This document shows, piece after piece, positions 14,747 through 22,314 of a stretch of 24,186 nucleotides of DNA (the first letter of the stretch is position 1; every line of letters starts with the position of its first letter). The stretch lies in assembly GCA_964482105.1 (NCBI GenBank), contig CAYZWA010000001.1, positions 18,806-42,991 on the forward strand, read 5' to 3'. This stretch comes from an uncultured Candidatus Saccharibacteria bacterium. Lineage in GTDB: Bacteria; Patescibacteriota; Minisyncoccia; Phycocordibacterales; Phycocordibacteraceae. The position numbers and the translations under genes were made by a program. Below the pieces are notes generated by a model that had not been told where the DNA came from, searched no databases, and worked only from the letters and a program-made list of their open reading frames with translations.

Positions 14747-14764
14747 GTCTCGTATATACGAGAC
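14747..14764. promoter_or_regulatory. Perfect 18-bp palindrome GTCTCGTATATACGAGAC (copy 1 of the TCTCGT-RTAY-ACGAGA motif)
   Basis: Self-complementary; a near-identical palindrome occurs at 22297-22314. Confidence 0.7.
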
Positions 14765-14794
14765 ACACCCTTATACTCGAACAAAGTACCCGAT

Positions 14795-14827
14795 ACTCCC
14801 GTGTAGCGATACACGGGTAACGGGAGT
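14795..14827 (+). other. Stem-loop with GCGA tetraloop and a competing alternative pairing
   Basis: CCCGTGTA-gcga-TACACGGG (14798-14817); ACTCCCGT (14795-14802) can instead pair with ACGGGAGT (14820-14827). Confidence 0.4.
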
Positions 14828-14963
14828 GCTCCGCGTCGAAAAAAGTTAAAGAAGCTGGAGTGAACGAGCCAACGACGCACCGCTGCAATAGAGGTCTATC
14901 CACAGGCCATCTCTATAAATTGCCGTGGCTTTTCTTTATTATTTAAGTAACCTGCTACACGGC

Positions 14964-16124
14964 ATGAACTCTCCTCTACTCGATACCCATCTTGCAGCCC
15001 CTGCAACCGAGACGCACGTACAATCCGAACTGCGTGCGGTAGCAATCGCTGCCTGCGTGCTTGTCTTGGGCGCGTCTGCCGCATACTCTCCCGCGCTTCC
15101 GCAGGTTGCGGGTCGTGTTGCTACCGTGGCACATCGCGTGGCGACCGGATTCGCGGATACGTTCGGCGCATCGACCGATGTGCGCGGACGCATTGCCCAA
15201 GCGCTCGTGCCGCGTCAGGAGCGCTTGCTGCCGGCATACCAGACAGCGGACCAGACCACGCTATTCGCAGACGCGCAGGCGCATATCGCGGCAGCAACCG
15301 CCGGTTATACCGCACTGCGTGCGTATGCGACCGCCGGCGACGTGGCACAGCCATTCGCTGCCGTGGCGCAATCCGCGCGCACGCGCTCCCCTTCGGCCGA
15401 TATCGGAGGCGCATACGTCGCGTTCGGGCGCTCTGTTATCGCCGTATCGGATTGGTGCATTCACGCTGACATATCGCTCGCGTACCTGATTGCGCGCGCG
15501 GGGTTCGCCGGCGTGTCGACAGCGAACAGATTCGCGCGGTCGGCGGCCGCCGGTGCGCGGATCGCATACGCGGGCGTGTCTGACGCCCTGCGCGGGAGCG
15601 CGCTCTTGTCGGCGGGCGCGCATGAATTCGCTCAGGGCAAGCGCGCCGCGGCGGCTGCGTTCGCGGCAGTCGCTTCGGCGGCAAGCACGCTCTCTGTGCC
15701 CGTCGCGCACCAGGTACACCGCGAGCGATTCCCAAGCCCGATGCCGGACATCCTGCCGGTGCTCTCTGGTGCCGTAGATGCGCTAGGCGAAGGGGTCATC
15801 GCTATAGCACACGCAGCGATTAACGCCGACGTATCGCTTGCGTACGGTATCGCGGCTGCTGCTCCGGCAAGCGCACGGGCCGTGTTCGGTGCGGAGTATG
15901 CCACCGCGTACCGGTTCGTCGCGGTCACTGATACGGTGTCGACCGGGTACGGTCTCGCGGTCGAGCGTGCCGGCCGGTTCGCGTACGAAGGGGTAGCCGG
16001 TGTCGGTGCGTTTACTACGCAGACTGCTGCCGGGGCGTACAGTGCATACCGGTCGATCCTTGATGCGGGTACGTTGCCCGCGGCACACGTCGGCGTACCG
16101 GGACGTACCGCGAAGGGGAGATGA
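14964..16124 (+). CDS. Ala-rich membrane-anchored protein with an internal 29-aa repeat; first gene of the F1-like operon
   Basis: One N-terminal hydrophobic segment (AVAIAACVLVLGASAAY) and two GAxxAxGxxVIAxxxxxIxADxSLAYxIA repeats; ATGA overlap with the next gene. GTG 14925 is an alternative start. Confidence 0.7.
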   Translation: MNSPLLDTHLAAPATETHVQSELRAVAIAACVLVLGASAAYSPALPQVAGRVATVAHRVATGFADTFGASTDVRGRIAQALVPRQERLLPAYQTADQTTLFADAQAHIAAATAGYTALRAYATAGDVAQPFAAVAQSARTRSPSADIGGAYVAFGRSVIAVSDWCIHADISLAYLIARAGFAGVSTANRFARSAAAGARIAYAGVSDALRGSALLSAGAHEFAQGKRAAAAAFAAVASAASTLSVPVAHQVHRERFPSPMPDILPVLSGAVDALGEGVIAIAHAAINADVSLAYGIAAAAPASARAVFGAEYATAYRFVAVTDTVSTGYGLAVERAGRFAYEGVAGVGAFTTQTAAGAYSAYRSILDAGTLPAAHVGVPGRTAKGR

Positions 16125-19771: not shown

Positions 19772-20619
19772 TCACCCAGGAGAAGAAGCGTGATCTGGAA
19801 GACCTGGAGGCAGTCCGGTTCGTCGCGTCAGCGCTCTTCGACGTGAGCGCAGAAAAGATCGGGCGCCTGCGCGCGGCCTTCGATAGGAACAGCCTCTTTT
19901 ACAACGACCTACATGACCTGTACGGCTCCGTGCGGCGCACGGCGGCCGATCGTGGCGAGCTTCCGCCAGAGCCGCGCACCGTCGCACGGAAGCGGGTATG
20001 CGTCGCGTTCACCTCGAATGTGCGCTTCTACGGCTCGGTCAACGCTGATGTCATGGTCGCGTTTCTCGACCAGCTCGCGCAGGATCGCTCGGCGGGGGCA
20101 ATAGTCATCGGCCGGACGGGGAAGGCGTTCCTAGAAGACACGGAGAACGCGCGCGGCGTGGCGAAGGTGTCCCATGTCTCATTCGAGGCGGATGAACCGA
20201 CGCAGGAAGAGATACGGCACTTTCTCGAACAAGTCGCGCAGTACGATGAGGTCCGGGTCTTCTATCCGTCGTTCGTGAGCGTGTTCTCGCAGCAAGTCGC
20301 GTCGGTCGATATCGCGCGGATCGAGGCGGACGAGACCGACACGCCGGCTGGCGCGCCGGTCGACTACTTGTTCGAACCAGAACTCCCACAGATCATCGAC
20401 TTCTTCGAAAGGAGGGTGCGGTATCTGCTCTTCCAGCGCGTTGCGCTCGAGTCGGAGCTCGCCCGCACAGCGTCGCGCCTGTTCGCCATGAACCGTGCAC
20501 AAGATCGTGCTGACGAGGAGGTCAAGAAAGTGCGGCGTACCATCAAGAAGGACGAGGAAAACTTTAATGACATGCGGCTGCTCGAATCGTTCGCCGCTAT
20601 AGCGAGATGGAAATCATGA
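19762..20619 (+). CDS. atpG: F1-ATPase gamma-like subunit (divergent)
   Basis: [12 protein letters not shown] (canonical TSDRGLCG..N), YLFEPE, and [14 protein letters not shown] (canonical SE..AR..AM); located between alpha and beta. Confidence 0.85.
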
Positions 20620-22028
20620 ATACGCAATTTGTCGGACGGATAGCGAGCGTGCGCGGACAGATCGTGCTCGTACATTGCGAGAGCGCATACCGACCCGCGC
20701 TCGGGGAAGTCCTCTTCGCCGAAGAGGCGCGCAACGTGAAGCTTGAAGTCCATTCGTACTATGACCGGGATCGCATACACTGCCTGCTGCTCTCCTCGAA
20801 AGAGGCACTCTATCGGAACATGCGTATCGTGAGTGACGGCGCGATGCTCGTCATCCCCGTGGGAGACGATGTTCTCGGCCGCGCATTCAACCTCTACGGG
20901 CACCCGGTCGACGGTGGACCGGGCATCGACGATACAGAAACCCGTCCCATCAATCCGTCGTCGCACGGTACGCACATCAGACACGGCGGACAGCGCAATC
21001 TCCTCGAGACCGGCATCAAGCTGCTCGACTTTTTCGCGCCGATCGTCGAGGGAGGGCACCTTGCGCTCGTTGGGGGCGCTGGCGTCGGTAAGACGTCACT
21101 CATGACCGAGATTATCAGGAACCTCGCTAAGACGCACCCGGGCGTCACGTTGTTCGCGGGCATCGGCGAACGCATCCGCGAGGGATTCGAACTCTGGGAT
21201 TCCCTCAAGGGTACCGGTGCACTCGCAAAGACAGCGCTCATCGTCGGACACATCAACGAGAATGCGGCGGTCCGCTTCAAGGTCGGCGCAGCCGCGGCGA
21301 CACTCGCGGAATATTTCCGTGATGAGAAGCGTACCGACGTGCTGTTCTTCGCGGACAACATCTTCCGCTTCGTTCAGGCCGGGAACGAGCTCGCGACGCT
21401 GCTCGAAGAGATTCCCTCGGAGTACGGGTATCAGTCGACGCTCCAGACCCAGGTCGCGCAGTTCGAGAACCGCCTGTCGAGCAGCGATACTGCCTCCATC
21501 AGTTCGGTACAGACCGTGTACGTTCCCGCTGACCAGCTCTCCGACCCTGCGGTCGCGGCGGCGTTGCCATACTTCGAGTCAATCGTCATCCTTTCCCGTG
21601 AGATGAGCCAGGAAGGGCGGTTCCCTGCGGTTGACCTGCTTCGCTCAAAGTCGTCCGTGCTCAATCGGGCGCTCTTCGGGGATCGGCACTACGACGCGCT
21701 CGTCTCGGCGACCGAGGCGCTCAACCAGTACGACCGTCTCGTTCGCATCGTCTCCATCATCGGAGAACGGGAGCTGTCTGCGCAGGATCGGACTGCGTAC
21801 GAACGTGCGCTGCGTCTGCGTAATTACATGACCCAGCCTTTCTTCACGCTTGAAGACCAGACCGGGCGCCCAGGCGTCTTCGTCACGCGGGACGAGACGG
21901 TTGCGGACGTAGAGCACATCCTCTCAGGAGCGTTCGACGCCGTCCCACCGGAGTCTTTTCTCTATATAGGATCCGCGAAAAGCCTCCAAACCGAGCCAGT
22001 TGCCGCTGCCGGTCAACGCAAAGCATGA
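20616..22028 (+). CDS. atpD: F1-ATPase beta-like catalytic subunit
   Basis: [56 protein letters not shown] and QPFF motifs. ATG 20616 overlaps the gamma stop. Confidence 0.95.
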
Positions 22029-22297
22029 TGAGCGGCAGAGCATCAGCATCAGCTTTCCCGGTGGCGGTCACGAGTCCTGATAAAGTGATCTGGGAGGGGA
22101 AGGGGATCAGCGTTAGCGCTGAAAACAGTACGGGACGATTCGATATCCTTCCTGAGCACGCGAACTTCGTTACCATCATAAAACCAGGTGTCTCGATTGT
22201 CGTACGAACCGCAGAAGGTAGCGAACACACGTTCGCGTACAAGAACGTCGTCCTGGCAGTGAAGGACGGACGAGTCGGCATATATGTAAATATATAA
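22025..22297 (+). CDS. atpC: Epsilon-like subunit, beta-sandwich domain only (90 aa)
   Basis: [11 protein letters not shown]...[14 protein letters not shown] matches the epsilon N-terminal domain; no C-terminal helical hairpin. Confidence 0.8.
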
Positions 22298-22314
22298 TCT
22301 CGTGTACACGAGAT
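22297..22314. promoter_or_regulatory. Perfect 18-bp palindrome ATCTCGTGTACACGAGAT (copy 2 of the TCTCGT-RTAY-ACGAGA motif)
   Basis: Self-complementary; starts at the last base of the epsilon stop codon. Confidence 0.7.

Follow-up and report, generated by a model that had tools for sequence, protein, structure and literature searches.

A conserved CGAGAT dyad beside a divergent ATPase operon of Patescibacteria, a candidate operator of membrane-anchored helix-turn-helix proteins

Two perfect palindromes at an ATPase locus

The stretch of DNA analysed here (the window; 24,186 nucleotides (nt) of contig CAYZWA010000001.1) carries, in this order, obg, hth1, o399, the rest of the operon for a divergent F1-like ATPase, and hth2, together with two perfect 18-nt palindromes at the operon boundaries, which are the subject of this study. 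The gene hth1 (13713-14732, plus strand) encodes a protein with an N-terminal, Xis/BldC-like helix-turn-helix (HTH) domain of the HTH_17 family, an acidic linker, and a C-terminal transmembrane anchor. The eight-gene operon (14925-22297, plus strand) encodes o399, o278, o260, and the delta, alpha, gamma, beta, and epsilon subunits of the ATPase, with a TATAAA box at 14914-14919, 5 nt ahead of the operon's GTG; o399 (14925-16124) is the orthologue of a third hth paralogue, hth3, from which the HTH domain has been lost. After a 693-nt A+T-rich gap follows hth2 (22991-24186, plus strand, running off the window end), a paralogue of hth1 that the initial annotation had called the fibre gene and in which an HTH_17 domain and a transmembrane helix precede a repetitive, Gly-rich extracellular part. 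The first palindrome (W1; GTCTCGTATATACGAGAC, 14747-14764) starts 15 nt past the hth1 stop codon TAG (14730-14732) and sits 161 nt ahead of the GTG of the first operon gene (14925). The second (W2; ATCTCGTGTACACGAGAT, 22297-22314) takes as its first base the last A of the atpC stop codon TAA (22295-22297) and sits 677 nt ahead of the hth2 ATG (22991); neither palindrome is assigned a strand.

The initial annotation had described two related 16-mers (14748-14763 and 22298-22313), each extending to a perfect 18-mer just past a stop codon, with two internal differences that preserve the symmetry, and all of this holds. The outer base pair is G...C in W1 and A...T in W2, the centres read ATAT and GTAC, respectively, and full self-complementarity is kept in both. 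No other perfect, zero-spacer palindromes of at least 18 nt occur in the window (shuffle mean 0.13), and a scan of the window with the degenerate pattern of the initial annotation returned 2 exact matches and 2 with three mismatches, versus 0.31 expected. Two random 18-nt palindromes would have at least 7 of the 9 half-site positions in common with P ~1.3e-3. Outside the palindromes, the likeness of W1 and W2 is limited to ~6 nt on the upstream side (ATATAT).

A shorter site, CATCTCGAGATG (22929-22940, no strand assigned), composed of two abutting motif half-sites 51 nt before the hth2 ATG, is present as the initial annotation reported, but its relevance is uncertain: 12-nt palindromes are common here (13 observed versus 8.8 expected in the window), and no conservation was found at the equivalent place in relatives. 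A solitary left half-site, GTCTCGTG, followed by GTGTACA, lies inside the atpC-hth2 spacer (22512-22531, plus strand). A third long perfect palindrome, the 16-nt ATTTACGTACGTAAAT at 14708-14723, falls within the last hth1 codons, 24 nt before W1, and is unrelated to W1 and W2 in sequence. A short open reading frame (ORF) starting at 22315 was rejected as coding, since the equivalent ATG in two relatives (L003 and L017) meets a stop after two codons.

A conserved element and its promoter context

In our best reading, W1 and W2 would be this genome's perfect-dyad versions of a conserved cis-element, (A)TCTCG-N6-CGAGAT(A). After atpC, the element takes the form CTCG-N6-CGAGAT(A), with a TAAAAT-like box 5-6 nt further on. 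Orthologous elements adjoin atpC in about 18 relatives (L003-L017, L020, L022, L026, and L039), whose beta-subunit identity is 52-81%, and start 0-40 nt past the atpC stop; in L003-L017, L020, L022, and L026, this interval almost always holds the element, with an A/T-rich box behind it. In an ungapped alignment of 18 sites, 16 of them after atpC and 2 upstream of obg, columns C9, G12, C19, G20, A21, G22, and A23 are invariant; the CTCG-N6-CGAG spacing is constant and gap-free in all 18 sites, as in an inverted repeat with fixed half-site spacing; and a TTAAAAT/TATAAT-like box occupies columns 30-36 at a constant distance. The constant N6 in this alignment overturned a variable arm spacing of 4-8 nt, which had been derived from regular-expression matches. 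Across the same loci, CGAGAT/ATCTCG occurs 18.1 times per kb in the 80 nt after atpC, compared with 0.78 in coding and 1.07 in other intergenic DNA, so that the motif is ~20 times denser after atpC. The enrichment of the hexamer is visible only in the lower-GC relatives (34-57%, against ~65% G+C with A+T-rich gaps in the window), and none was detected in distant Patescibacteria (clade C); within the GC-rich window itself, the density of CGAGA[TC] is uninformative, since the hexamer is common in coding DNA.

R1, a covariance model derived from the 18-site alignment, was scanned over 830 kb (the window plus 56 loci) and scored W1 at 24.9 bits (E 2.5e-4) and W2 at 32.8 bits (E 3e-7). All R1 matches with E < 1e-4 lie after atpC, at the hth1 3' end of L011, in the atpC-hth2 spacer of L011, or upstream of obg (L016 and L017), and the post-atpC site of L039 was found although it was outside the training set. 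No strong match occurs elsewhere in the 830 kb, where other intergenic DNA is at about background, and the element thus does not behave as a genome-wide repeat class, be it repetitive extragenic palindromes (REP), miniature inverted-repeat transposable elements (MITE), or uptake-sequence pairs. Nor, within the DNA sampled, is it a generic terminator or repeat at random gene ends, a possibility raised in the initial annotation. Rather, it is conserved at orthologous loci and, within the sampled loci, restricted to what would be a small regulon, as expected of an operator.

A metagenome-wide scan for ATCTCGTNNNNACGAGAT (14 specified bases) matched at least 120 loci and was discarded as a regulon finder: unrelated matches, notably a tandem ATCTCGTGCGCACGAGAT repeat family, are dominant among those listed, and among the matches listed only L122 and L137 have an hth homologue within ~500 nt. 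In so large a collection, a pattern with only 14 specified bases is not selective enough. Tandem repeats of ATCTCGT-NNNN-ACGAGAT units with a period of ~21 nt, often beside 'gggacatgcagaaaaa', occur in several metagenomes (L079, L128, L133, L144, L165, and others); this family is unrelated to the element.

The element recurs in promoter-like surroundings. The predicted hth1 promoter (13690-13712, plus strand), CGAGTG-tcggc-TATACT-gtcggt directly followed by the ATG at 13713, is leaderless and contains a half-site of the motif. In hth1 orthologues, a TATACT/TATAAT box stands 6-8 nt before the ATG, and leaderless mRNAs are therefore implied. In 8 of 12 hth1 promoters, versus none of 15 other start-proximal promoters of these loci (Fisher p = 2e-4), the -10 box is preceded by CGAG at a distance of 5-9 nt, and this half-site is often doubled, yielding CGAGnCGAGAT-N5-TATACT-N6-8-ATG; the post-atpC elements of L003-L006, CGAGACGAGAT-N5/6-TAAAAT, represent the same module. 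Seven nt past W1 lies a TATACT box (14772-14777, plus strand), the same hexamer as the hth1 -10 box and itself a putative -10 box, from which transcription would start near 14784; its spacing fits the CGAGAT-N5-7-TAnAnT arrangement of the relatives. A -10-like A/T box (TATTAC/TACATA, 22318-22326, plus strand) lies 3-6 nt past W2, in the position of alignment columns 30-36.

A further context is provided by clade B (L019, L023-25, L027, and L037), in which atpC, the gene for epsilon, is divergent from the hth gene. There the motif is found 60-100 nt ahead of the hth ATG, within the 5' region that both genes share and with no gene end nearby, and has the form of a tandem CGAGATAacCGAGATA in L023 and L025. 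Since it follows no gene end in this clade, a promoter or operator is favoured over a terminator.

Conservation does not extend to the upstream copy. Among the ~13 relatives covering the hth1/operon boundary, only L011 (5132-5171) has a counterpart of W1, the others having at most scattered CGAG or CTCG tetramers, and bracketing of the operon is therefore confined to this genome and one other. Thus, of the conservation that the initial annotation called for, the part downstream of atpC stands, whereas the part upstream of the ATPase operon does not, and neither does bracketing of the operon as a clade feature: the conserved partners of the element are the hth genes, not the ATPase promoter.

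Two observations touch on promoters more generally. Gene starts in the window (13701-13715, 14914-14927, and 10109-10126) and in relatives typically lie 5-9 nt past a TATAnT and have no Shine-Dalgarno sequence, which points to mostly leaderless mRNAs in this group of genomes. The DnaA-box consensus, (T)TATCCACA, has only three sites in the window (9753-9761, 14897-14904, and 22918-22925), all in intergenic DNA and in plus-strand orientation, where they precede a small basic-protein gene, the ATPase operon, and hth2, respectively. This box is conserved upstream of hth2, hth3, and second-clade hth homologues and is probably a second regulatory motif, a site for DnaA or for another factor.

Operator, hairpin, or core promoter

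We propose, with a probability of about one half, that W1 and W2 are promoter-proximal operators, probably for the Xis/BldC-like HTH proteins of the locus, with a possible second role as 3' hairpins. The element would occupy the -35-to-spacer part of a sigma-70-type promoter, at a fixed 5-7 nt upstream of the -10-like TAnAnT, and a sequence-specific DNA-binding protein would bind it there, the likeliest binders being hth1 and hth2, the membrane-anchored paralogues that flank the operon, through their N-terminal HTH_17 domains of the Xis/BldC/MerR-like type. Such binding would control the transcription leaving the site, which at W2 would run toward hth2 across a long untranslated spacer and at W1 toward o399 and the ATPase operon, while the half-site in the hth1 promoter would control hth1 itself, amounting to autoregulation of the hth paralogues. 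In its secondary role, a copy adjoining a stop codon could mark, through its 7-bp hairpin, where the hth1 and atp transcripts end. What the analysis shows are the sequences, their conservation and position, the fixed half-site spacing, the association with promoters, and the fold of the HTH domain; activity of the -10-like boxes, the hth proteins as binders, and the direction of regulation are inferred. The operator co-regulating the motor and the fibre, as envisaged in the initial annotation, survives in part: an operator-type role tied to two HTH proteins is the best reading, but the bracketing of the ATPase operon is not conserved.

The symmetry of the element is informative to a limited extent. 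The central tetranucleotide is self-complementary in 5 of the 18 aligned sites (ATAT, GTAC twice, TATA, and CATG), where ~6.5% would be expected (binomial P ~0.005), and asymmetric in the other 13 (ACAA, CGAG, and others); the orthologous site of L014, which lies outside the alignment, has the centre ATAC, one step from both ATAT and GTAC. Symmetric centres are inexplicable by a hairpin, because a 2-nt loop would be required, and they modestly support symmetric protein contacts or, alternatively, a palindrome-perfecting mutational bias, e.g., template switching. The initial annotation had argued for selection on dyad symmetry from compensatory central changes, an argument that is weak because it was based on two copies in one genome. 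Across the 18 sites, the self-complementary centres speak weakly for such selection, whereas the 13 asymmetric ones and L014 speak against it.

Several observations weigh against the operator. A sigma-70 scan gives no canonical promoter at W1 or W2, and the would-be -35 hexamer, TCTCGT, has little resemblance to TTGACA. W2 and its orthologues always adjoin the atpC stop, with the distance to hth2 varying between 320 and 1200 nt (the range in which hth2 is found past atpC in all clade-A relatives whose record extends that far), and this close attachment to atpC would be explained at least equally well by a function at the 3' end of the atp operon. Furthermore, hth2 has its own conserved proximal promoter, which lacks the CGAGAT motif: a module at 22947-22985 (plus strand), GGCGAACA-N12-TAAAATATA-N3-AAATCGTC, that takes the form GACGAACA-N12-TAnnATATA-N3-AATTCGTC in L003-L015. 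In L016b, L017b, and L022, the same arms are part of canonical terminators with T-runs, and a CTTG left arm in three sites keeps G-U pairing on the plus strand only, a hint of selection at the RNA level. Finally, the hth proteins were chosen as candidate binders only from their co-location with the motif and its presence in their own promoters.

Some of these points equally serve the main rival, according to which the element functions purely at the RNA level, as 3' stem-loops (terminators or stabilisers without a U-tract) that end the hth1 and atp transcripts, the conservation of the arm sequence being incidental or due to an RNA-binding factor. We consider this possible, if doubtful. As in an intrinsic terminator, a G+C-containing stem-loop begins 0-15 nt past the stop codon in both copies, and the predicted hairpins of W1 and W2, with 7-bp stems and 4-nt loops, reach -9.9 and -13.5 kcal/mol (z-scores -2.0 and -3.2, respectively). 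The constant proximity to atpC whatever the hth2 distance, the T-run terminators of the three relatives, and the plus-strand G-U pairs of the CTTG variants suit this explanation as well. So does another gene of the window, a 48-residue Lys/Arg-rich ORF (9885-10031), which ends in a T-run-less hairpin (10047-10090; a G+C-rich stem of 20 perfectly paired bp closed by a 4-nt loop); it illustrates what a generic 3' hairpin looks like in this genome and is unrelated in sequence to the TCTCGT motif. However, no T-run directly 3' of the stem was found on the plus strand of W1 or W2 in a terminator scan, in which W2 was flagged on its minus strand only. Of the 18 sites, all but one have standard pairs at the four core CTCG/CGAG positions, and pair 7-24 holds in 17; pairs 8-23 and 13-18, which would lengthen the stem, are unpaired in at least half of the sites. 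Most relatives keep only 4-5 core pairs, too few for a stable hairpin. Two of the core pairs never vary and two vary on one side only, with no two-sided change; the covariation score over the 18 sites (0.114) was reached by 42 of 500 shuffles and is not significant; and Rfam searches at gathering and E-value thresholds gave no match. The right arm (ACGAGAT) is markedly better conserved than the left, and this bias, together with the unpaired positions and the lack of covariation, indicates selection on sequence rather than on pairing. Moreover, the arm sequence is kept across ~50% protein divergence, unlike in ordinary terminators, hth1 promoters and those 5' regions of clade B where no gene ends contain the right arm on its own, and the symmetric centres cannot be base pairs.

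The fixed distance to the -10-like box, in at least 18 sites as well as in hth1 promoters, and the position of the left arm, exactly where a -35 hexamer with a 17-nt spacer would fall, are also what one would see if the element were a core-promoter element read by RNA polymerase itself, through an alternative sigma factor or through a preference of this lineage for a certain spacer or -35 sequence, no dedicated repressor or activator being involved. This is improbable in our estimation: the best-conserved part, CGAGAT, falls within the spacer at a distance of 5-6 nt from the -10 box, and sigma-70-family factors make few base-specific contacts there; none of the 15 other promoters of the same loci contains the motif; and an inverted repeat with symmetric centres plays no part in sigma recognition. 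The near-identity of the two palindromes flanking the operon, and the presence of copies at both positions in L011 as well, had their attraction for the second proposal of the initial annotation, namely recombination sites at the ends of an exchangeable 7.5-kb module, and for the related idea of terminal repeats of a mobile ATPase module. However, all relatives covering the region share the order hth1, (hth3), ATPase operon, hth2; the contigs of four salt-marsh metagenomes holding this organism contain no deletion or inversion joints at the palindromes and none linking 14.7 kb to 22.3 kb; searches of the window found no recombinase gene or domain in or beside the interval; GC content is steady across its boundaries apart from intergenic dips; and most relatives lack the upstream copy altogether. 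The fixed gene order and the absence of such joints therefore rule out an exchangeable module, and we give mobility next to no credence. (Two metagenome assemblies break inside or next to W1, as is to be expected when de Bruijn graphs meet a palindrome.) A neutral local duplication or chance resemblance without function could account for the poor conservation of the W1 position and for the likeness of W1 and W2 over ~6 nt upstream, as a small duplication would leave, but is very unlikely in view of the rarity of 18-nt palindromes and of such half-site agreement in random sequence, and of the conservation of the downstream copy in ~18 independent genomes.

The HTH proteins, their neighbours, and known systems

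The candidate binders of the proposed operator form a consistent protein group. In 33 of 34 hth1, hth2, and hth3 proteins, the 60 residues at the N-terminus match Pfam HTH_17 (PF12728; best E 6.7e-8), with hth1 alone scoring under the PF12728 gathering score (18.5 and 23.4 bits versus a cut-off of 27). An AlphaFold model of the hth N-domain, computed with database homologues as the alignment, has a pLDDT (predicted local distance difference test) of 92.8, and its best Foldseek matches in the PDB are mycobacteriophage Xis, BldC-DNA, RacA-DNA, and the RdfS excisionase, DNA binders without exception, with probabilities of 0.84-0.99 (0.99 for Xis and BldC), target-length TM-scores of up to 0.75, and a root-mean-square deviation of ~1.8 A. 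A sequence search of the PDB with hth gave only weak matches to AM32/TraN. By sequence and modelled fold, the N-domains of hth1 and hth2 are thus predicted members of the HTH_17/winged-helix group. BldC binds direct repeats head-to-tail as cooperative multimers (PMC5859096), and binding of this type would be compatible with the tandem half-sites seen here.

Upstream of hth2, the proximal promoter module has inverted GACGAA/TTCGTC arms around its -10 box and occurs twice in the window (22584-22623 and 22947-22985), with duplicates also in L005; the ~300 nt past the upstream copy contain no convincing ORF and may represent a degenerate gene or encode a small RNA. The protein o399 matches the transmembrane and C-terminal parts of hth3 (L014 4117-5475 and L015 4115-5497), without the ~85-residue HTH domain, and a similar loss has occurred in L008.

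A search of reference genomes with the beta subunit returned only metagenome-assembled genomes of Patescibacteria (also known as the Candidate Phyla Radiation, CPR), the closest being labelled Kaiserbacteria/Parcubacteria (81-65% identity), and the window sequence is also present in salt-marsh metagenomes. The bacterium behind the window is Kaiserbacteria-like and, for Patescibacteria, unusually rich in GC. Other genes of the window encode glycosyltransferases, a flippase, an O-antigen ligase-like protein, MurB, SecA, and Obg; a search for tRNA and tmRNA genes found none. Within the operon, the F-type ATPase subunits delta, alpha, gamma, beta, and epsilon all score under curated cut-offs, o278 is a membrane protein without a Pfam match, and o260 is a b-like coiled-coil protein. 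Despite these five subunits and the b-like protein, the operon has no Pfam-recognisable a and c subunits, the region 14925-17750 being taken up by o399, o278, and o260. The o278 gene is kept ahead of the operon across Patescibacteria, and the C-terminal end of its product, by eye, is a hairpin of two helices joined by a GRNP loop, the second of which lacks acidic residues. This ATPase may therefore have an atypical membrane sector, as in mycoplasma F1-like ATPases, models of which also match the alpha and beta subunits of the window. Over the conserved nucleotide-binding part of the beta gene (21276-21599), the depth of contigs rises 2- to 15-fold in all four metagenomes, and one metagenome contig skips 21184-21354, probably through cross-assembly with ATPase genes of other organisms.

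We know of almost no experimental work on transcriptional control in Patescibacteria, and a literature search for CPR promoter motifs or cis-regulatory elements found no description. What emerges here is a 16-18 bp cis-element with a defined consensus and position, a candidate binder of unusual architecture (HTH_17, transmembrane helix, and extracellular fibre), and a candidate regulon comprising the hth paralogues, the atp-operon boundary, and, in two genomes, obg, all of which are testable. If binding were confirmed, this would be the first operator-regulator pair for the clade and would connect proteins of the cell surface with how an atypical F1-like ATPase is expressed; if the element were only a 3' hairpin, it would be an ordinary feature, yet one whose unusual sequence conservation would still need an explanation. 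A more far-reaching scenario, which we regard as unlikely as matters stand, is that the CGAGAT dyad is the operator of Patescibacteria-specific, membrane-tethered Xis/BldC-like factors whose extracellular parts sense surface or host contact and which control their own genes and the adjacent ATPase operon. Were it true, it would represent a ToxR-style transmembrane circuit built from an excisionase-type DNA-binding domain, with a large fibre-like surface protein as the sensing part of hth2.

The type of feature described here is already known, and nothing about it is mechanistically unprecedented. In MerR-type operators, such as merO of Tn501/Tn21, a dyad lies between the -35 and -10 boxes. The present element likewise is an ~18-bp inverted repeat that ends 5-7 nt before a -10-like box, with its left arm at the -35 position, and its candidate binder has a MerR-like winged-helix fold; unlike in merO, however, the dyad centre is not conserved, many orthologous sites are asymmetric or direct repeats, and the -35 and -10 boxes are putative, and, unlike MerR, the hth proteins have no coiled-coil dimerisation or effector domain. 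Terminator hairpins without a U-tract have been reported in high-GC bacteria, and the stem-loop right after the stop codon, with T-runs in some orthologues, resembles Rho-independent terminators; the conservation of the arm sequence across genera, the lack of covariation and, in the window, of a T-run, and the half-site in 5' regions set it apart from them. With ToxR, TcpP, and CadC, the hth proteins share, as read from sequence, a layout in which one transmembrane helix separates an N-terminal DNA-binding domain in the cytoplasm from an extracytoplasmic domain, as well as candidate target sites that adjoin the factors' own genes, although the DNA-binding domain is HTH_17 and not an OmpR-type winged helix, no sensor domain is recognisable, and hth1 is almost without an external part. 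The small winged-helix proteins BldC, Xis, and RdfS, which bind direct-repeat arrays head-to-tail (PMC5859096; PDB 6AMA, 4J2N, and 8DGL), differ from the hth proteins, candidate binders here, in that the hth domain shares its polypeptide with a transmembrane anchor and, in hth2, also with a large repetitive region outside the cell, and their sites differ from W1 and W2, which are perfect inverted repeats. Nevertheless, these proteins are the best structural matches of the hth N-domain, and tandem half-sites, CGAGnCGAGAT and CGAGATAacCGAGATA, are found at many sites of the element.

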